Shown here in pieces: positions 39,122 to 48,406 of a DNA stretch of 64,000 bases. The DNA is from Myxococcota bacterium (GTDB taxonomy: Bacteria > Myxococcota_A > UBA9042). The stretch covers positions 71,180 through 135,179 of the forward strand of contig CAXNCS010000003.1 of the NCBI GenBank assembly GCA_964201005.1, written 5' to 3'. The first letter of the stretch is position 1, and each line of letters begins with the position of its first letter. The position numbers were made by a program, and so were the translations under genes. The notes beneath the pieces were generated by a model. The model did no database searches. It was not told the origin of the DNA and was given only the letters and a program-made list of their open reading frames with translations.

Positions 39122-40156
39122 ATGGAAACCAAGAAGTACAGGGTGGCAGTGCTGGGAGCTACCGGCGCGGTCGGCCGAGAAATGCTCAACGTGCTGGACG
39201 AGTTGCGCTTGCCCGTCAGCGAGGTCATCGCTCTTGCATCGGCGCGCTCGGAAGGCGAAGAGGTCGAGTTTGGCCGGCGGACCCTCAAGGTCAAGCTCGC
39301 GAGACCAGAGGCTTTTGACGGCGTGGACATCGTGCTGGCCTCTGCGGGCTCGGCGGTGTCCAAGCTGCTCTTGCCTGAGGCCGCCAAACGCGGCGCGCTG
39401 TGCATCGACAATTCCAGCGCCTTTCGCATGGTTCCAGAAGTGCCGCTGGTGGTTCCTGAGGTCAATCCCGAAGCGATGATCCGCCACAACGGCATTATCG
39501 CCAACCCCAATTGCTCGACCATCCAGTTGGTGGTGGCGCTCAAGCCGCTGCACGACGCGGCTGGGCTGCGCAAAGTCGTGGTGACGACTTACCAATCGAC
39601 TTCCGGCGCCGGCAAGAAGGGCATGGATGAGCTGCACGATCAGACGGTCGCCCTGCTGAACAGCCGGCCCTTTGAGGTCGAGGTGCACCACGCGCGCATC
39701 GCCTTCAACGTCGTGCCGCACATTGGCGCCGCGGGCGCGGACGGCTATACCGAAGAGGAGCTCAAGCTCCTGTACGAAACCCGCAAGATCATGGGGTTGC
39801 CAGATTTGCTGGTGAGCCCGACGGCGGTGCGCGTGCCGGTGTTTGCCTGCCACAGCGAGTCGGTGCTGTGCGAGTTTGACCGGCCGATGTCGCCCGAACT
39901 GGCCCGGGAACTCTTGGGCAAAGCGCCAGGCGTCAAGGTTGTGGACGATCTGGCGCAGAAGCAGTACCCGATGCCGATGGATGTCGCTGGCACCGATGAG
40001 GTGTATGTGGGCAGAATCCGTCGGGATCTTGCGAGTCCGCTGGGGCTGGCGATGTGGGTGGTGGCCGACAACCTGCGCAAGGGTGCGGCGACCAACGCGG
40101 TGCAGATTGCCCAGCTGGCGATCAAGGCCGGCTTGGTTCACGGCGCGCGCAGTTAG
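39122..40156 (+). CDS. asd: Aspartate-semialdehyde dehydrogenase
   Basis: YRVAVLGATGAVGREMLNVL (NAD(P)-binding), IIANPNCSTIQLVVALKPLH (active-site Cys), VTTYQSTSGAGKKGMDEL, RVPVFACHSESV. The 344-aa length is typical. Confidence 0.9.
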   Translation: METKKYRVAVLGATGAVGREMLNVLDELRLPVSEVIALASARSEGEEVEFGRRTLKVKLARPEAFDGVDIVLASAGSAVSKLLLPEAAKRGALCIDNSSAFRMVPEVPLVVPEVNPEAMIRHNGIIANPNCSTIQLVVALKPLHDAAGLRKVVVTTYQSTSGAGKKGMDELHDQTVALLNSRPFEVEVHHARIAFNVVPHIGAAGADGYTEEELKLLYETRKIMGLPDLLVSPTAVRVPVFACHSESVLCEFDRPMSPELARELLGKAPGVKVVDDLAQKQYPMPMDVAGTDEVYVGRIRRDLASPLGLAMWVVADNLRKGAATNAVQIAQLAIKAGLVHGARS

Positions 40157-40357: not shown

Positions 40358-42124
40358 ATGCTGCAGCCGCTCCACCGTCGTGTGCTCCTGATTTCGTCCC
40401 TGCTTGTGGCCCTGATGGCCGCGCTCGGGGCGTCCGCGTATGCCGTGCCCACTGTGCAGATCCTCAAGATCGAAGCGGCCACGGGATCGGATTGGACGCC
40501 GCCTACGCATTTTGGCCTGGGTCCATCGACGCCCGGGGCCACGGACGACGTCCACTACATCAACAAAGCGGACTGTAAGGCGGTGATTGCCGCGACAAAT
40601 CCGCGGGTCAAGGTGTCGTGGACTTGGTCGCCGTCTCTGGTGCTGGGCACCACGTACACGGGGATCACCAAAGTGGCGCCGCGCGGCAAGAGCTGTACGG
40701 AGACCGCGCTCCAAGAGACCGACACCGCTACGGCGTGCATTGTCGGCGCGGAGGTCACCTACCAGATCGGCAAGACCTACACCTTTGAGGTCGACGTGCG
40801 CGATCTGATTGGCACGGAGACCACTTGCGAGGAGAAGGTTGAGCAAGACGCCTTCTTGTACCTGCTGGTCAACGATCAGGCGTCTGTGGGCGTCAACCAG
40901 GCGGTGGTGGCGTTTAAGTCGCGGATCACCGTGGACTTGGCCGGGCCCGTCGCGCCGACGATCTCAAGTGTGACCCCGGGTGGCGAGAATCTGCGCGTGG
41001 TGTGGAGCCACGCCGACGAGTCGGTGGTTTCCGGCAGCTACGTGTACTGGGCGGAATTGTCCTTTGATTCCTCGCAGGTGACCAGTGGTGCCGTCAAGGT
41101 CAGCAAGTCGGATCTGCTCACGTCTACCAGCCACCAGATCACCGGGCTGACCAACGGCAAGCTCTACTATGTGGGCGTGGTGTCGGTGGACAGCCATGAC
41201 AACGAGTCCGACTACTCTAAGCTGATCACTGGCACGCCGATCGAAGTGCTGGACGGCTGGCAGTACTACAAGGGCGAGGGCGGTGCGGACGAAGGCGGGT
41301 TTGCCCCGTGCAGCGCCGGTCGCACCCCTGCCTCGCTGAGCTGGGCTCTGGGGCTGCTGGCGGTTGGGCTGGTCGTGGCCCTGCGCCGCCGCCGTCCATT
41401 TGGTTTGGGCGCGCTGGGGGTGGTCGGACTGCTTGCGCTGGGTGCGCTGGTGCCGCAGCCGGTCCAGGCCGCGTCGCCGCTGACCAGCAGCATGGACGTG
41501 CGCGTGACCCGCTACCAGCCGGCGATCGACTCCGCGTTCAGCGGCAAGGCCAAGCCCTATGCCGACGTATTTGGCGATTCCGCCTGGCAGTTTGGCATGA
41601 GCTACGATACCCGCCTGTGGGATCGCTTTGGCACTCTTTCTGCGGGTTTTGGCCTCAACTACTGGTCCAAAGAGGGCAAAGGCGTGGTCAAGGCCACCGG
41701 CGAAGCGAGCGGCGACACCACTTCGCTGCAGGTCATGCCGCTGTCTCTCGACCTGGTGTACCGCTTTGACCCCCTGGCCGAGCGCTGGGGCATTCCGTTT
41801 GTCCCCTACGCCAAGCTGGGGCTGATGTACAACGTTTGGTGGATGCGCAACGGCATCGACGAGATTGCCACCACCACCAGCAGCGACGGCACCAAGCAAG
41901 AGGCGCTGGGGGCCACAGGCGGCTGGCACGGCACCTTGGGCCTGCGCTTTATGCTCGACGTGTTGGAGCCGCAGTCCCAGCGCAGCTTTGACATTGAGAT
42001 GGGCGTCAACCACAGCTACTTGTTTGCCGAATACCAGATGATGACCGCGGACGACTTTGGTTCGGGCAAGAGCATGGTGTTGTCCGACGACTTGTTTGTG
42101 TTTGGGCTGGCCTTTGACCTCTGA
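40358..42124 (+). CDS. Composite envelope protein: signal peptide, unknown domain, FN3-like domain, internal MYXO-CTERM-like tag, second signal-like segment, then a C-terminal beta-barrel-type domain
   Basis: ORF 40166-42124, with the start moved to ATG 40358 (GGAG upstream; MLQPLHRRVLLISSLLVALMAALGASAYA/VP). FN3-like segment: PVAPTISSVTPGGENLRVVWSH..LTNGKLYYVGVVSVDSHDNES. Then GGFAPCSAGRTPASLSWALGLLAVGLVVALRRRR (nt 41294-41395), then PFGLGALGVVGLLALGALVPQPVQA/AS. About 210 aa with barrel-like alternating strands follow, ending LFVFGLAFDL. Confidence 0.75.
   Translation: MLQPLHRRVLLISSLLVALMAALGASAYAVPTVQILKIEAATGSDWTPPTHFGLGPSTPGATDDVHYINKADCKAVIAATNPRVKVSWTWSPSLVLGTTYTGITKVAPRGKSCTETALQETDTATACIVGAEVTYQIGKTYTFEVDVRDLIGTETTCEEKVEQDAFLYLLVNDQASVGVNQAVVAFKSRITVDLAGPVAPTISSVTPGGENLRVVWSHADESVVSGSYVYWAELSFDSSQVTSGAVKVSKSDLLTSTSHQITGLTNGKLYYVGVVSVDSHDNESDYSKLITGTPIEVLDGWQYYKGEGGADEGGFAPCSAGRTPASLSWALGLLAVGLVVALRRRRPFGLGALGVVGLLALGALVPQPVQAASPLTSSMDVRVTRYQPAIDSAFSGKAKPYADVFGDSAWQFGMSYDTRLWDRFGTLSAGFGLNYWSKEGKGVVKATGEASGDTTSLQVMPLSLDLVYRFDPLAERWGIPFVPYAKLGLMYNVWWMRNGIDEIATTTSSDGTKQEALGATGGWHGTLGLRFMLDVLEPQSQRSFDIEMGVNHSYLFAEYQMMTADDFGSGKSMVLSDDLFVFGLAFDL
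41294..41395 (+). other. Internal MYXO-CTERM-like segment (Gly-x-x-x-Cys, hydrophobic helix, RRRR) in the middle of an ORF
   Basis: GGFAPCSAGRTPASLSWALGLLAVGLVVALRRRR has the same architecture as the genuine C-terminal tag at 2897-2986, but here about 240 further codons follow with no stop codon. Confidence 0.55.
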
Positions 42125-42137
42125 GATCCCAAGGCCC

Positions 42138-43019
42138 ATGGCCGATCCGACCAGCGCTCAAGACTGGGGCCGCCAGCGCAGCTTGCTGATGTGGGTGCAG
42201 TTTGAAGGCGCGGGTTTTGCCGGCTTTCAGCGCCAGCAGGGCGGCATTCGCACCGTCGGCGGCACCATTGAACAGATGTGGCGCGAACAGTTTGGCGAGG
42301 AAGTGTGGGCCCGATCGTCTAGCCGCACGGACGCAGGGGTGCACGCCCGGCGCATGCCGGTGCTCATTCGCACCAACCTGGCGCTTGCCGCGCGCGGGGC
42401 AATGCTCGGCCTGAACACTCGGCTGCCAGAGGACCTCAAGGTGCTCTCCGCAGAGGACGTGCCGACCGATGCCGACATCCGCGCCGACGCCGTGGGCAAG
42501 CGCTACCTGTATCGCATTCAGGAAGGTCCTGTAATTCTGCCCCTTTGGCGCGGCCACACCTGGCACGTGCGCGGGCCGCTGGACTTGGAGGCCATGCAAC
42601 AGGGGGCGGCGATGCTCCGCGGGGTCCACGATTTTGCCGCGTTTCGCTCGCAGCACTGCGGGTCGGCGACCACGCTGCGCGATCTCCACCTGGTGGCGGT
42701 GAGCGAGGTGCTGCGCGAGGGACCGTGCCGGGTCCTGCAGGTTGAAGTCGACGGCAACGCCTTCTTGCACAACATGGTGCGGATTATCGCCGGCACGCTG
42801 GTGGATCTGGGGCGCAGGCGGCGCAAACTGGCCGATTTGCAGCGGGCCCTGCAGCTGGGCGATCGCAGAGCCGCGGGACAGACCGCGCCGCCCCACGGCC
42901 TGCAGCTGGACGATGTGTACTTTGGCCCATGGGGCCAGCGCTTGGGCACGGATTACAAGGCGATTTTGGCGCACATGGATGCCGATCGCGCTCGCCGGGC
43001 CGCAGAAGCGCCTCAGTAG
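42138..43019 (+). CDS. truA: tRNA pseudouridine(38-40) synthase TruA
   Basis: In-frame ATG 42138 within ORF 42057-43019. FEGAGFAGFQRQ, SSSRTDAGVHARRM (catalytic Asp), DFAAFRS, NAFLHNMVRIIAGTLVDLG. The 3' end overlaps the convergent gene by 7 nt. Confidence 0.9.
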   Translation: MADPTSAQDWGRQRSLLMWVQFEGAGFAGFQRQQGGIRTVGGTIEQMWREQFGEEVWARSSSRTDAGVHARRMPVLIRTNLALAARGAMLGLNTRLPEDLKVLSAEDVPTDADIRADAVGKRYLYRIQEGPVILPLWRGHTWHVRGPLDLEAMQQGAAMLRGVHDFAAFRSQHCGSATTLRDLHLVAVSEVLREGPCRVLQVEVDGNAFLHNMVRIIAGTLVDLGRRRRKLADLQRALQLGDRRAAGQTAPPHGLQLDDVYFGPWGQRLGTDYKAILAHMDADRARRAAEAPQ

Positions 43020-44062
43020 ATGCAGGCGAACTTGCCGGTGCTTCCGTCCCAGCCGCACTTGACCGCGCCCACATCCAGGCATTTGACAAAGCTCAGTTTT
43101 CCGCTGTTGCAGTAGACCCACGTGTCGCCGCTGCACTGGCCTTGGGCGGGGAACGTGGTGGCGCTGCAGCTGCCGCCGGCGACCGGGGTGCAAGCCGTTA
43201 CGTCGCACTTCCAGCCCTCCGGGCAGGTGCCGCAGGGCTCGCCGCAGCCGTTGGTGCCGCAGACCATCTTCTTGCCGGTGTCCGTCACGCAAGCGCTGTC
43301 GCACTGTTTGACCACGCAGGTGTGGCTGTTCTTGACCGGATCCCAGCCGCACGTCAGGTTGTTGAGGTTGGGGGGCGCCGCGCAGTCCTTGGCGATTTTC
43401 TGAGCGCTTGCGCCGCTGCCGCTGCAGGTGAGCAAGATGTCGCCCTCGCACGAGCCCTTCTGCGGGTCGATGCCTTTGCACGGGCTGGCCTTGCACTGGT
43501 CGACATCGCAGAAATCGCCAACGCCGCAGCCGCCGCAGGACACGCCGCAGCCGTTGTCGCCGCACTGCTTGCCGGTGCAACTGCCTTTGCAGTCGGGCGT
43601 GTAGCATTTGCCGTCGGCGGCGCACTGCTTGTCTCCGTCGCAGGTGCCGCACTGGCCGCCGCAGCCGTCGGGACCGCAGATCTTGCCTGTGCACTGCTTT
43701 TCGCAGAATCCTTTGCAGGCGCTGCCGTCTTCGGCGCAGAATTCGCCGGATTTGCAGAAGCCGCACACCGAACCGCAGCCGTTGGGCCCGCAGACTTTGC
43801 CTTTGCACTGCGGGGTGCAGGGGCCCGTGTCGGCTTTGGCCGTATCCGCACCGTTGCTGTCGGCTGGCGGGGCAGCGGTATCCAGGGCGTCGTCGGCAGC
43901 GTCGGTCGCGACGGTGTCGGCTAGGTTTTCCGAGACCTCGGCCGCATCGACCACCGCATCGGCGGAGCCGCTCTTGGCGGGCTTTTCTGCGGCGACACAA
44001 CCACCTAGGCCAGCTACGCCGACCAGGACTAGCGCTGCGCCCCACCGTGTCCACCCGTTCAT
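43013..44062 (-). CDS. Cys-repeat lipoprotein (349 aa)
   Basis: ORF 43013-44434, with the start moved to ATG 44062 (MNGWTRWGAALVLVGVAGLGG/CVAA lipobox). There are four copies of the C.GK.CG..GCG..CG.C module (CKGKVCGPNGCGSVCGFC; CTGKICGPDGCGGQCGTC; CTGKQCGDNGCGVSCGGC; KKMVCGTNGCGEPCGTC). There are also two copies of a C.GD...C.SG..C..CGWD..C module. Confidence 0.8.
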   Translation of the reverse strand: MNGWTRWGAALVLVGVAGLGGCVAAEKPAKSGSADAVVDAAEVSENLADTVATDAADDALDTAAPPADSNGADTAKADTGPCTPQCKGKVCGPNGCGSVCGFCKSGEFCAEDGSACKGFCEKQCTGKICGPDGCGGQCGTCDGDKQCAADGKCYTPDCKGSCTGKQCGDNGCGVSCGGCGVGDFCDVDQCKASPCKGIDPQKGSCEGDILLTCSGSGASAQKIAKDCAAPPNLNNLTCGWDPVKNSHTCVVKQCDSACVTDTGKKMVCGTNGCGEPCGTCPEGWKCDVTACTPVAGGSCSATTFPAQGQCSGDTWVYCNSGKLSFVKCLDVGAVKCGWDGSTGKFACIY

Positions 44063-44396: not shown

Positions 44397-45416
44397 ATGG
44401 AGACGCTGCTAAAGCGACACTTCTGGGCCATCAATCTGGCAGCGCTGGCGGCGATTGCCTATTTTGCCGCGGGCTCCGTCAACGCCTTGATCGGCCTGCA
44501 GTTGTCCAAGGCGTCGCGGCCGGATGACAAGAGCCAGGTGGTCGCTTCGGCCGACGAGTCGCCGCTGACCAAGAAGCTCCGCGACGGCCGCCTCCGCGAA
44601 GAATCGGGCGCCGTCATGGCGGGTCGCCGGCCGTTTTGGCAGGAAGAGCCCGCGCCGCCGGAGCCGCCGCCAGAAGAGCTGCCGCCGGAGGGCGCAGGCG
44701 GCCCAGAGACGCCACCGGAGCCCAGTTTTGATCCGACCACGCTGCCGATCAAGCTCCTGGGCACCATGGTGGTGGCGCCGGAGACTTGGTCGTCCGCCAG
44801 CGTCGAGGTCGAGAGGACCAGCCAGAAGATCGTCAACGTGGGCATGGAGTTGCTGGGCGGGCAGGCGACGGTCTACGCGATTCGCCGCAACTACTTGGTG
44901 CTCAAAGAGGGCGACAAGCTCACGGTGGCCAAACTGTTTGCCGACGAAGCCCAGCAAGCCGCAGGCGGGGCGCCGCTGGCGCCGGGTGCAGCCGTACCGG
45001 TACCTGGGGCGGGTCGCGCACCCGGAGCGCCGGTCCGGCCAACGCCAGCTGCGATGGCGGGCGGGGTTGATCCGCCGGGCGTCAAGAAAGTCGGCGACGG
45101 CGTGTACAACCTCGAGCGCGGCAATGTCAACGAGAAGCTCAAGGATGTCACCACTTTGGGTACGCAGGTGCGCATTGTGCCCAATTACCGCGGCGGCAAG
45201 TACGAGGGATTTCGCATGATCGGCATGGGCGGCGGCAGCCTGTTTAGCGACATCGGCTTCCTCAACGGCGACATCGTCCAAGCGATCAACGGCGAGCGCA
45301 TCGACAGCCCCAACAAAGCCCTGGCCCTGTATGAAGCGCTCAAGAACAAAGCCCGCTTGACCGTGCTGATCGAGCGCGACGGCCAGCCCAAGACCCTTCG
45401 CTACACCATCCGCTAG
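44397..45416 (+). CDS. gspC: Type II secretion system protein GspC-like (TM anchor, Pro-rich linker, C-terminal PDZ)
   Basis: In-frame ATG 44397 (AGGAG upstream) within ORF 44259-45416. It has the TM helix FWAINLAALAAIAYFAAGSVNALIG and a PDZ-like end (GFRMIGMGGGSLFSDIGFLNGDIVQAINGERIDSPNKALALYEALKN). It sits immediately upstream of the secretin gene. Confidence 0.65.
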   Translation: METLLKRHFWAINLAALAAIAYFAAGSVNALIGLQLSKASRPDDKSQVVASADESPLTKKLRDGRLREESGAVMAGRRPFWQEEPAPPEPPPEELPPEGAGGPETPPEPSFDPTTLPIKLLGTMVVAPETWSSASVEVERTSQKIVNVGMELLGGQATVYAIRRNYLVLKEGDKLTVAKLFADEAQQAAGGAPLAPGAAVPVPGAGRAPGAPVRPTPAAMAGGVDPPGVKKVGDGVYNLERGNVNEKLKDVTTLGTQVRIVPNYRGGKYEGFRMIGMGGGSLFSDIGFLNGDIVQAINGERIDSPNKALALYEALKNKARLTVLIERDGQPKTLRYTIR

Positions 45417-45418
45417 CC

Positions 45419-48406
45419 GTGCGGCCGTCGCGCCGCGCAGCCACGCAGCAGTTTCGAATTCCAGACCAGACGGAGCACGCTTTGAGGACTCCCCATCATC
45501 GACAGCATCTCAGCCTTCGGGCTTACCTGACCGCGGTCCTGACCCTGGCGCTGGCCAGTTGGGCGACGCCCGCGTTGGCGCAGGAGGCCGGCAGTCCAGA
45601 AGCAGGCGGCCGAGGGCCCGGAGGCGCCGCGGCTGCCCCTGGGGCCGAGCGCAGCGGCGAGCGGGCTATCCCGGTGACGGGCGGGGCCGGCAAGCTCTCC
45701 AAGAAGCCCAAGACCGGCGAGATCAAGGCCGGCGGAAGCGGATCTGGGGTGCTCAAGCGCAAGCCGGGGGCCAAGCTGGACCCGGAGTACGATCCGGCCG
45801 CGGCGAGCCGTAGGGCCAAAGAAGGCGAGGAGCCCGCTGCGGCAGAACCGCGCACGCCCGGCCGCGGAGCCGAAGTGCCGCCGCCGGCTTCGCCTGGCAG
45901 TCCGCCGTCCAGCGATGAGCTCAAGAAGCTCGACGACGTGATGACCGTCAAGAACAACTTTACGGATATCAAGTGCAAGCGCCTGCCGCTGTCGGCCAAA
46001 GTGTCGGTCGACTTCCAGGATGCGCCGCTCGAGATCGTCACCAAGATGATGTCCTGCTGGCTGGACCGGAACTTTGCCGTGATGACGCAAAAGCGCGGCG
46101 GCAAGGTGACGATTTTGTCGCCGCAGCCGGTCACCGTGTACGAGGCCTACCGGGCTTTTCTTTCGAGCTTGGCGGTCAACGGCCTGACAGTGACCAAGAA
46201 GGGCCAGTTTTACCACATCGTCGATACGCCTGACGCGCGCAGCTCTGGCGCCCCGGTCATCGGCACACGGGGAAACGTCCCCGATGAAGACAACGTGGTC
46301 ACCCGGCTCATCCGCCTGCGGCACATCGACGCCAAGGACGCGGAAGCGGTGGTGGGCAAGTTCAAGTCCAAGACCGGCGACGTGTTTCTATACGCCCCGA
46401 CCAACACGCTGATCGTCACGGACATGGCCAGCAGCATTCGGACGATCATCAAGCTCCTCAACGAGATTGACGCGCCTCTGGGTGCCGACCGCATCTTTAT
46501 TCGCCCCGTGCAGCACATGGACGCCAGCGAGTTGGTCGAGAAGATCAACGCGGTGTTTGGCGAGGGCGGCGGCGGCGGCGGCCCGGCTCGGGGTGGCGCG
46601 GCGCCAGGCGGGGCCAACGCGGGTTCGCCCAGCTCGGCGGCCAAGGTCACCTTGACCAAAGTGGTGGCCGACGACCGCAGCAACCAGCTCATCATCATCG
46701 CCACGCGCTCCAACTACCTCAAAGTAGATGCATTGGTCCGCAAGCTCGACATGCCGATCCCCGGCGAAGGCGCCATCCACATCCACCATTTGGAGAATGC
46801 CGACGCCGAAGACGTGGCCCAGACCCTCTCTTCGCTCACTGGCGGCGGCGGCGCAGCGCGCTCGACCAAGGGCAGCAAGAGCACCGGCAGCAAATCCGCA
46901 GGCGCCAAGAGCGGCGGCGGCGCGGCGAGCCTTTTTCAGGGCGATGTGAAGATCACCGCTCATAAGGCCACGAATGCTCTGGTTATTGAGTCTAGCCTCA
47001 AGGACTATTTGAGCCTGCAGAAGGTCATTGGCGAGCTCGATCGCCGCCGCAAGCAGGTGTACGTAGAAGCGGTGGTGATGGAGATTTCGACCTCCAAGAA
47101 GCGCAACACCCAGCTGGCCGGCTCGGCGGGCACGGTGTTTGACATCGGCGGCGACCAAGTGCCGTTGCTGTTTGGCCTGGGCGGCTTGGGCATGTCGGGC
47201 GTGTCGCTCCAGCAGCTCAATTCCGGTGGCTTTGCCGCCGGTCTGCAAGGCCCTCTGCTCAACGTCAACGCGGGCAATACCGGCTCGAGCTCGGTGGCCA
47301 CCGGCGTGACCCTGTCGATCCCCGCGTTTGGCTTTCTGATTCAGGCGATTCAGGAGAATAGCGACGTCAACGTGCTGTCGACCCCGCACATCCTGACCCT
47401 GAACAATGAGGACGCGGAAATCACCGTGGGCCGCAAAATCCCCTATCGGTCCCAGAGCATGGGCAGCGGTCTTGGCGGTCTTAGCGGCCTAGGCTCCCTG
47501 GGTTCCAGTGCCCTGGGCTCGCTCGGCGGTTTGGGGGCGTTGGGCGGCATGATGGGCGGCATGATGGGCGGCATGGTGCAGTTCCTTGACGTCGACCTGA
47601 CCCTGAAGATCACCCCGCAAATCAACGAGTCGGACTTCATCAAGCTCAAGATTGAGCAGCAGCTCGACGAGGTGGAAGGGATCGATCCCAACCTCGGGCC
47701 GACAACGTCCAAGCGCAAAGTCAACAATACCGTGGTGGTGCGCGATCAGCAGCCGGTGGTGATCGGCGGCCTGGTCACGGATCGCGAGTCGACCGGCGTG
47801 GCCAAGGTGCCGATTCTGGGCGACCTGCCGCTGATCGGCATGCTGTTCCGCAAGTCGACCAAGACGATTGAGAAGAAGAACCTGATGCTCATCGTGGTGC
47901 CGCACATCATCAAGGATCCCAGCGATCTGGAGAAGATGCACGAAAACAAGATGGAGCAGATTCGCCAGTTTGCAGACGAGTTGGCCACCAAGCAGAAGGA
48001 GTACCAGGGCAAGGTCGACTACCGCAAGAAGAAGGGCTTCTTGGAGACGGTGTTTCAGGAGGTCGACAAGGCGGCCCAAGAGCGCAAGCTGATGGAAAAG
48101 GCCTACTTTGACAACCAGGATGTCGACAAGGTCGGTTCGCCGGAGAGCCACGATCTGCACTACGACCCGAGCAAGGGCAAGGATGCAGGCAAGGCCCCCA
48201 GCAAGGGCAAGAAGGCTGAAAAGCCGGCGCCTGAGGACGACGACGACGGCCCCGCGGTCGAAGTGATCGACCTGCCGGAAGACGACAAGGCCGAGGAAGA
48301 AGCCAAGGACGCGCCTGCAGAAAAGAAGGCATCGGCCAAGAGCGGCGAGAAGAAGCCGGCGGACAAGAAGGACGACGCCAAGGACAGCAAGAAGGGTGAT
48401 AAGTGA
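45419..48406 (+). CDS. gspD: Type II secretion system secretin GspD, with long disordered N- and C-terminal extensions
   Basis: GTG 45419 lies 2 nt after the gspC stop. An alternative start is TTG 45482, preceded by GGAG. Signal peptide ..LTAVLTLALASWATPALA/QE. N-domains: DFQDAPLEIVTKMMS, LIRLRHIDAKDAEAVV, NTLIVTDMASSIRTIIKLLNEID. Secretin core: VLSTPHILTLNNEDAEITVG, VVVRDQQPVVIGGLV, KVPILGDLPLIGMLFR..NLMLIVVPHII. Confidence 0.9.
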   Translation: MRPSRRAATQQFRIPDQTEHALRTPHHRQHLSLRAYLTAVLTLALASWATPALAQEAGSPEAGGRGPGGAAAAPGAERSGERAIPVTGGAGKLSKKPKTGEIKAGGSGSGVLKRKPGAKLDPEYDPAAASRRAKEGEEPAAAEPRTPGRGAEVPPPASPGSPPSSDELKKLDDVMTVKNNFTDIKCKRLPLSAKVSVDFQDAPLEIVTKMMSCWLDRNFAVMTQKRGGKVTILSPQPVTVYEAYRAFLSSLAVNGLTVTKKGQFYHIVDTPDARSSGAPVIGTRGNVPDEDNVVTRLIRLRHIDAKDAEAVVGKFKSKTGDVFLYAPTNTLIVTDMASSIRTIIKLLNEIDAPLGADRIFIRPVQHMDASELVEKINAVFGEGGGGGGPARGGAAPGGANAGSPSSAAKVTLTKVVADDRSNQLIIIATRSNYLKVDALVRKLDMPIPGEGAIHIHHLENADAEDVAQTLSSLTGGGGAARSTKGSKSTGSKSAGAKSGGGAASLFQGDVKITAHKATNALVIESSLKDYLSLQKVIGELDRRRKQVYVEAVVMEISTSKKRNTQLAGSAGTVFDIGGDQVPLLFGLGGLGMSGVSLQQLNSGGFAAGLQGPLLNVNAGNTGSSSVATGVTLSIPAFGFLIQAIQENSDVNVLSTPHILTLNNEDAEITVGRKIPYRSQSMGSGLGGLSGLGSLGSSALGSLGGLGALGGMMGGMMGGMVQFLDVDLTLKITPQINESDFIKLKIEQQLDEVEGIDPNLGPTTSKRKVNNTVVVRDQQPVVIGGLVTDRESTGVAKVPILGDLPLIGMLFRKSTKTIEKKNLMLIVVPHIIKDPSDLEKMHENKMEQIRQFADELATKQKEYQGKVDYRKKKGFLETVFQEVDKAAQERKLMEKAYFDNQDVDKVGSPESHDLHYDPSKGKDAGKAPSKGKKAEKPAPEDDDDGPAVEVIDLPEDDKAEEEAKDAPAEKKASAKSGEKKPADKKDDAKDSKKGDK

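Follow-up and report, generated by a model that had tools for sequence, protein, structure and literature searches.

An old in-frame fusion of sgmI-type and MXAN_2562-type genes in Myxococcota places a MYXO-CTERM-like tag in mid-chain

Introduction

Sortase, exosortase, rhombosortase and myxosortase systems each use sorting tags that are defined as C-terminal. Here we describe an open reading frame (ORF) from a Myxococcota genome in which a MYXO-CTERM-like tag stands in the middle of the chain, between an SgmI-like surface protein and an outer-membrane (OM) beta-barrel. The ORF lies in a 64,000-nucleotide stretch of DNA (hereafter the window; assembly GCA_964201005.1, contig CAXNCS010000003.1, positions 71,180 to 135,179), and we conclude that it arose by a true and ancient in-frame fusion of two genes, represented in Myxococcus xanthus by the pair sgmI (MXAN_2561) and MXAN_2562. 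Of the two products, SgmI, a factor in motility and development, is poorly characterised, and the MXAN_2562 barrel is uncharacterised.

The M. xanthus pair is the closest described system. MXAN_2561 encodes SgmI, a surface protein with two fibronectin type III (FN3) domains that has been implicated in type IV pilus-dependent motility; MXAN_2562, an OM barrel, appears to be co-transcribed with it, and the mutant fitness profiles of the two genes are similar (bioRxiv 10.64898/2026.08.28.747804). The myxosortase MrtX has been shown to cleave MYXO-CTERM, in Escherichia coli too, and internal MYXO-CTERM tags have been called rare (PMC11980579). One such case is MXAN_5598, which Guo, Haft and Wall (mBio 2025) interpreted as a gene fusion; they proposed that its N-terminal part is processed and surface-anchored, and likened the design to TraA/TraB (PMC11980579). 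In that system a MYXO-CTERM surface protein is followed on an overlapping ORF by a partner that contains an OM barrel, and the two act together (PMC11980579, PMC3325183). MXAN_5598 already combines cargo, an internal MYXO-CTERM and an OM barrel (PMC11980579), and in the literature we found no mention of an sgmI/MXAN_2562 fusion or of its spread over at least eight families.

The locus in the window holds the same two families as the M. xanthus pair, in the same order and at the same position downstream of asd. In both, the FN3-type surface protein bears a Cys-helix-Arg tag and is followed by a signal peptide and a barrel of ~215 residues. The window locus differs in that the Myxococcaceae and Archangiaceae loci fetched have two ORFs, whereas here there is one, with no stop, ATG or Shine-Dalgarno sequence between its halves; in addition, the N-terminal half is divergent (91 bits) and the tag reads GGFAPCSAG rather than GGCxxxGGG. 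With MXAN_5598 it shares a signal peptide, surface cargo, internal MYXO-CTERM and OM beta-barrel in a single ORF, but the cargo of MXAN_5598 is a large adhesin, its C-terminus combines the barrel with an OmpA cell-wall-binding domain, and its locus is a cell-division cluster. The likeness to TraA/TraB, a MYXO-CTERM surface protein with a barrel partner, is drawn from arrangement, with no claim of sequence relationship; TraA and TraB are separate genes, and TraB has an OmpA domain. Type Va autotransporters also join an N-terminal passenger to a C-terminal OM barrel in one Sec-dependent precursor. Their passenger threads through or beside a 12-stranded barrel while attached to it, whereas here the barrel has eight strands, not the twelve with a linker helix in the lumen of a type Va translocator, and both domains are set apart by a membrane hairpin for which two inner-membrane cleavage sites are predicted.

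Results

A surface protein and a barrel share one open reading frame

A sequence-only reading of the window had described an uninterrupted frame at 40358-42124 with a MYXO-CTERM-like tag, a second signal-like segment and a barrel-like end, and had offered three explanations: the fusion of two ancestral genes, a precursor cleaved by the tag-processing machinery, or a frameshift or lost stop that hides two genes. On re-reading, the frame ran from ATG to stop without a break, and the coordinates and description given for the tag, the second signal and the chain end were matched exactly. The parts of the ORF are as follows.

40358-42124, + strand: fused ORF, ATG at 40358, stop codon at 42122-42124, 588 aa in a single open frame
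40358-40444, + strand: N-terminal Sec signal peptide, residues 1-29, MLQPLHRRVLLISSLLVALMAALGASAYA followed by VP, ending AYA/VP (a slash marks the cleavage site); the next part starts at 40445
40445-41293, + strand: SgmI-like ectodomain, residues 30-312, with a beta domain that contains Cys and, after it, an FN3 domain
41294-41395, + strand: internal MYXO-CTERM-like tag, residues 313-346, GGFAPCSAG, a helix at ~325-342 and RRRR
41309-41311, + strand: Cys318 of the tag
41384-41395, + strand: RRRR, residues 343-346
41396-41470, + strand: h- and c-regions of the internal signal peptide, residues 347-371, ending VQA
Residues 347-367: second hydrophobic segment PFGLGALGVVGLLALGALVPQ, a hydrophobic window
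41462-41470, + strand: VQA, followed by AS at 41471-41476; AxA/xSP site, VQA/ASP
41471-42124, + strand: MXAN_2562-family eight-stranded OM beta-barrel, residues 372-588, plus stop codon (NF040596)

After VQA the chain continues for 217 residues and ends in FVFGLAFDL. The N-terminal signal peptide is supported by a hydrophobic window at residues 7-31, by a helix at residues 7-23 in the AlphaFold2 (AF2) model and by a starting Met shared among homologues.

The fusion recurs in at least eight families

A protein search returned 23 full-length relatives, 578-632 aa long and as little as 42% identical, which retain the tag Cys, the Arg cluster, the second hydrophobic segment and AxA/xSP. We also searched 401 Myxococcota genomes by profile and obtained a match in 275. 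Within the family of the window (f1), the fusion was present in all 30 sampled genomes, each with a single-frame match that crosses the junction without a stop; in one of them (G012) the contig end cuts the match short. Each of these orthologues is one gene, not the two genes with a stop after RRRR that a sequence error in the window would have implied. At least 22 genomes of seven further families (f4, f21, f23, f26, f38, f56 and f61) carry the fusion as well. Junctions read directly in nine of these, and in one f4 genome outside the sample (G035), showed canonical GGC tags, an Arg cluster, a second signal peptide and AxA. Three of those read directly (G199, G052 and G329) are single-contig complete genomes of f23, and their nearest named records are Bradymonadaceae and Bradymonadales. 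In f13 the genes are fused too, but behind a different, longer anchor (GGFCFIASAAYGS...). In all, the fused state accounts for about one in five of the sampled genomes with the pair and spans at least eight families.

Independent assemblies support the junction in the window itself. Two spans, 41226-41708 and 40900-41453, are covered by Logan contigs of other metagenomes (bioreactor sludge and freshwater), which differ from the window sequence by substitutions only, with no indels. The first explanation above, a surface-tag gene fused to an OM-barrel gene, stands: the halves correspond to the adjacent M. xanthus genes MXAN_2561 and MXAN_2562, and the split pair occupies the same asd-X-Y-truA position. 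Open-frame length was tried as a proxy for fusion and rejected, as four loci (L001, L004, L010 and L016) have open frames of 548-688 aa yet are split. High-GC genomes give long open frames by chance, and we therefore called fusion solely from a same-frame match to the N-terminal domain or the tag.

Fused genes lack the coupling signals of the split state

The pair was found through much of Myxococcota, and outside the fused lineages it usually consists of two coupled genes. We compared 54 distinct split loci, among them loci from Myxococcus, Corallococcus, Pyxidicoccus, Archangium, Vitiosangium, Polyangiales metagenome-assembled genomes (MAGs) and other families of the window's class. Their upstream gene ends in ...RRK(x)S and a stop codon. 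In 40 of the 54 loci, the TGA of the upstream gene overlaps the ATG of the barrel gene as ATGA, and a GGAGG-type Shine-Dalgarno sequence lies in the Arg/Lys-coding tail in 50. An ATGA overlap with a Shine-Dalgarno sequence in the tail is the classical layout of translational coupling. We infer that a one-base frame change at the overlap would suffice to fuse both frames.

Among 37 distinct fused junctions, taken from the Cys to the barrel, we found no conserved in-frame start with a Shine-Dalgarno sequence, and one junction (L037) contains no ATG, GTG or TTG at all. The junction in the window has four start candidates, none with a Shine-Dalgarno sequence, and its Arg codons read CGC CGC CGC CGT. 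The ATG and GGAGG present in split relatives and absent from fused genes indicate that the coupling signal was lost on fusion. A consensus scan for an internal promoter or terminator found no promoter-like site, with terminator-like sites at chance level, and was uninformative.

In a tree of the barrel domain, the f1 fused genes formed one clade of 33 rows with an SH-like approximate likelihood ratio test (SH-aLRT) value of 99, with split f10 as its sister; the fused f4 and f13 genes fell elsewhere. The tree requires three changes of state, of which well-supported branches force one. In f23, some genomes are fused and in others the genes are parted by in-frame stops alone. Since one family holds both states, fused and split forms seem to interconvert easily, and such a mixture is expected if both states yield identical products.

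Two side observations concern the pair and its transcripts. In four loci of the window's class (L008, L015, L020 and L052, from f13 and f10), the SgmI-like protein lacks a MYXO-CTERM end and ends instead in a longer anchor (GGFCFIASAAYGS...YYRLSPPLAQ...RLVLLPVV...) that has two hydrophobic stretches and, from its sequence, resembles a sorting domain of another kind; the L008 copy of this longer-anchor variant is also joined in frame to the barrel. A sediment metatranscriptome contig (X19) of 186 nt is 100% identical to window positions 41421-41606, and it falls short of the tag. That segment, or a near-identical relative, may be transcribed in nature, with DNA carry-over as an alternative source of the contig.

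The N-terminal half is an SgmI-like surface protein

In an NCBIfam profile search, residues 32-345 matched NF045522 (MXAN_2561_fam) with 91.1 bits (E 8.9e-26). The score does not reach the equivalog cut-off of that profile (150 bits); homology is nonetheless clear, and the alignment runs end to end, reaching the last profile position exactly at the Arg cluster. Pfam fn3 matched residues 206-288 (E 0.0046). As at MXAN_2561, asd lies upstream and a barrel of the MXAN_2562 family lies directly downstream, which makes the half a positional orthologue. A full-length AF2 model from a 64-row alignment had a mean predicted local distance difference test (pLDDT) score of 85 and contained two beta domains, two helices and eight long strands. 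Foldseek matched its N-terminal part to tandem FN3 structures (E ~3e-7), and four ectodomain cysteines (C73, C113, C127 and C157) are invariant among the full-length homologues.

The C-terminal half is predicted to be a small OM barrel

Residues 378-587 matched NF040596 (MXAN_2562 barrel) with 221.8 bits (E 7e-66; cut-off 100), which covers positions 3-207 of the 208 in the profile. FN3 matches dominated the Foldseek search with the full-length model, and we therefore modelled the barrel by itself. Modelling had been set beforehand as a check on the proposal that this half is a barrel, and the proposal passed it: AF2 returned an eight-stranded, OmpA/OmpX-like barrel with eight long strands, a pLDDT of 90.4 and a predicted template modelling (pTM) score of 0.84. 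The best Foldseek matches were the OmpA transmembrane domain, OmpX, Ail, NspA and OmpW (E 3e-6 to 1e-4), with the N-terminal domain of OprF also found; autotransporter beta domains matched weakly, with E of 3e-3 or worse. The sequence of the barrel found no relative in the PDB (best E 0.066), and the fold comparison alone was informative. The predicted fold is of the MXAN_2562 type, a small OM barrel behind a signal peptide with AxA. No OmpA-type cell-wall-binding domain was found after the barrel by Pfam or NCBIfam, and the chain stops with the last barrel strand.

The internal tag shares its Arg cluster with a second signal peptide

The internal segment has the tripartite build of MYXO-CTERM (GGFAPC318SAG, a helix at ~325-342 and RRRR at 343-346) in a protein with an N-terminal signal peptide at residues 1-29. 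It does not occupy the extreme C-terminal position usual for MYXO-CTERM, and 242 codons follow it. The description of this segment as MYXO-CTERM-like holds in its Cys-helix-Arg build and its conserved Cys, but its TIGR03901 score of 16.6 / 16.1 bits is below the cut-off of 20 and is the weakest of the 14 tag matches in the genome. The tag at ~2894-2986 to which it had been compared is a true C-terminal MYXO-CTERM, with 20.4 / 23.2 bits against the same cut-off and a stop two codons on.

The segment behind the tag proved to be signal-like, as had been supposed: it is hydrophobic at residues 347-367, ends in VQA, and its AxA/xSP is invariant. The positively charged n-region of this internal signal peptide is the tag's own RRRR. 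In split lineages, the N-terminal signal peptide of the barrel gene stands where the internal signal peptide stands here. The AF2 model placed one helix of the junction in the tag (residues 328-344) and one in the second signal (residues 351-363). In the alignment of full-length homologues G313, G314, C318, A371, S373 and P374 are invariant and R344 is nearly so; the tag Cys is conserved in 24 of 24.

The genome encodes a myxosortase and further internal tags

The genome is a MAG, 69% complete and in 97 contigs. It contains a myxosortase gene (NF040914 Mrt_core, 117.3 bits, cut-off 100; G000:C14:12802-13113), and Mrt_core matched above the cut-off in 24 of the 25 genomes searched. A CPBP candidate on contig C11 was rejected as a myxosortase, with an Mrt_core score of only 22.8 bits. 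At least 11 canonical MYXO-CTERM tags are present in this incomplete genome. Apart from the tag in the fused ORF, its 13 tags are followed by a stop within 2-6 codons in ten cases and within 23 codons in one, and two are internal.

One of these internal tags (contig C9:14606-14695, + strand, 27.1 bits) lies in an open frame of 2041 aa (C9:9524-15649). It ends in RRRRR and is followed by a signal-like ALALLLMGAALVAASPSVAA and then by ~285 aa with a weak match to the OM barrel family PF13557 (E 0.0048). To judge by its sequence, this frame looks like a fusion of the MXAN_5598 type, with large cargo and a barrel. The other (contig C62:10964-11062, - strand, 21.3 bits) lies in an open frame of 1107 aa and is followed by a lipoprotein-type signal (ILGVGFAALALSLG before the C of the lipobox), a D/T-rich linker and an SGL/NHL-type beta-propeller (PF08450, E 1.9e-12). 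Instead of a barrel, the predicted partner behind this tag would be a lipoprotein, to be cleaved by signal peptidase II.

The fused chain is likely to be a precursor of two envelope proteins

We consider it likely that the ORF encodes one precursor, from which cleavage by myxosortase and by signal peptidase I would yield two products, an SgmI-like surface protein with a lipid anchor and an OM barrel of eight strands. Such a cleaved precursor, the second of the three explanations above, is in our inference the best-supported mechanism, because both cleavage determinants are conserved, no internal start is present and the genome has a myxosortase. The N-terminal signal peptide would bring the chain to Sec, and the ectodomain would cross until the tag helix halts transfer in an N-out to C-in orientation, with RRRR staying in the cytoplasm. 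The second hydrophobic segment would restart translocation from N-in to C-out, with the shared Arg cluster as its n-region, so that the barrel too would reach the periplasm and the two helices would form an inner-membrane hairpin. This orientation would put AxA at the periplasmic face, as is needed for signal peptidase I to cut after VQA371 and free the barrel for OM insertion by the beta-barrel assembly machinery (BAM). Cys318 would be lipidated, and a myxosortase of the MrtX type would cut behind it, freeing the lipid-anchored surface protein, which by analogy with TraA would use the type II secretion system (T2SS) for export. A hairpin peptide of ~53 residues would be left over, and the mature products would be the two that split lineages make, here at a ratio fixed at 1:1.

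In the full-length AF2 model, AxA lies ~6 residues from the first strand, a spacing with which an uncut barrel could not reach the outer membrane. With no ATG, no Shine-Dalgarno sequence and no conserved start, the barrel must be made within the long chain. As TraB is to TraA, the barrel is probably the OM partner or anchor of the surface protein; eight strands are too small for a translocation pore, which makes this role likelier than that of an autotransporter-like exporter.

Several points weigh against the cleaved precursor. Every processing step is deduced from sequence, and the internal tag scores 16 bits against a curated MYXO-CTERM cut-off of 20. FAP is inserted between GG and the Cys, so that recognition by myxosortase is not assured, and a cytoplasmic loop of ~4 Arg is very short for a hairpin. 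With 91 bits against 150 on NF045522, the N-terminal half is not established as having the same function as SgmI, and a physical interaction of the two products is argued solely from the fusion, the coupling and the analogy to TraA/TraB.

The same subthreshold tag, very short loop and reliance on sequence would suit an uncut inner-membrane protein, in which a two-helix hairpin leaves both domains on the periplasmic side and the 'barrel' acts in the periplasm. We regard this as unlikely, since the C-terminal domain, at 222 bits, has full similarity to the free-standing OM barrels of split lineages and models as a membrane barrel with a C-terminal strand of the outer-membrane protein type. An uncut chain would also leave the invariant Cys and AxA/xSP without an obvious role, and it must be set against the interconversion of fused and split states within one family. 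An assembly or sequencing error in the MAG, a lost stop or frameshift concealing two genes, was the third explanation of the sequence-only reading, and the incompleteness and 97 contigs of the genome might lend it some colour. It is hardly credible given the indel-free contigs of other metagenomes across both spans, and the same in-frame junction in 30 of 30 family genomes and in the three complete f23 genomes; more than 50 genomes are fused, and independent assemblies agree.

Internal translation initiation, with the barrel made from its own start and the read-through fusion chain as an unimportant by-product, would have four in-frame candidates to draw on in the window (GTG, TTG, GTG and GTG at positions 22, 32, 37 and 47 after the Cys). 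The GTG before RRRR would even yield a classical signal peptide, MALRRRRPFGL..., and GTG codons are plentiful in high-GC genomes. We judge this very improbable. The candidates lack a Shine-Dalgarno sequence, no start is conserved in the 37 junctions and L037 has none, while the ATG and GGAGG carried by 50 of 54 split relatives have been lost in the fused genes. Moreover, without a stop codon the fused chain would be made anyway, and its tag and AxA are kept under conservation.

Implications of a conserved mid-chain tag

With the overall design known from MXAN_5598, the points of interest here are the conserved shared Arg cluster, the lost coupling signals and the spread of the sgmI-type fusion. 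The ORF offers a natural sorting tag in mid-chain that is conserved across a whole family, and it would allow the action of myxosortase on internal tags to be tested. It would also test whether a bacterial Sec substrate is cut into two envelope proteins inside the inner membrane. In addition, the fusion is 'Rosetta-stone' evidence that SgmI and MXAN_2562 are a working pair, like TraA/TraB. The three complete f23 genomes with the fusion may come from cultured isolates, and if so, a test in a native host is feasible. More tentatively, and with less confidence than we place in the cleaved precursor, we suggest that a sorting-tag helix, Arg cluster and second signal peptide might form a general, repeatedly evolved Myxococcota cassette for envelope polyproteins. 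A single Sec precursor would pass through as a hairpin, and two inner-membrane proteases, myxosortase together with signal peptidase I or II, would divide it into a surface lipoprotein and a dedicated partner in fixed stoichiometry; on this view the barrel might be an obligatory OM receptor or anchor for SgmI-like display. Three such internal tags occur in this genome, the one in the fused ORF included.

Gene order around the fused ORF

The genes that flank the fused ORF in the window are listed here.

39122-40156, + strand: asd, aspartate-semialdehyde dehydrogenase (NF011456, 466.8 bits)
42138-43019, + strand: truA (TIGR00071, E 5.4e-36), starting 13 nt after the fused ORF
43013-44062, - strand: Cys-rich predicted lipoprotein, MNGWTRWGAALVLVGVAGLGG followed by C..., with numerous CGxxGCGxxCGxC-like repeats and without a family in Pfam or NCBIfam
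~44397-45416, + strand: gspC (NF041515 GspC_delta, 228.7 bits)
45419-48406, + strand: gspD (TIGR02517 GspD, 463.5 bits)

The order asd, surface protein, barrel was kept in most of the fetched loci with enough flank, whether fused or split. In the window's class and in several other lineages truA follows the barrel; it does not do so in the fetched Myxococcaceae and Archangiaceae loci. The full block of PP2C, asd, fused gene, truA, Cys-rich lipoprotein (minus strand), gspC and gspD was found only in most of f1. The sequence-only reading had pointed to T2SS genes downstream of the fused ORF, and gspC and gspD do begin ~2.3 kb beyond it. The functional link that this might suggest is weak: the adjacency is confined to most of f1 and so is not conserved evidence for such a link, which synteny outside the window's family does not support. 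The Cys-rich lipoprotein gene between truA and gspC is likewise kept in most f1 loci.

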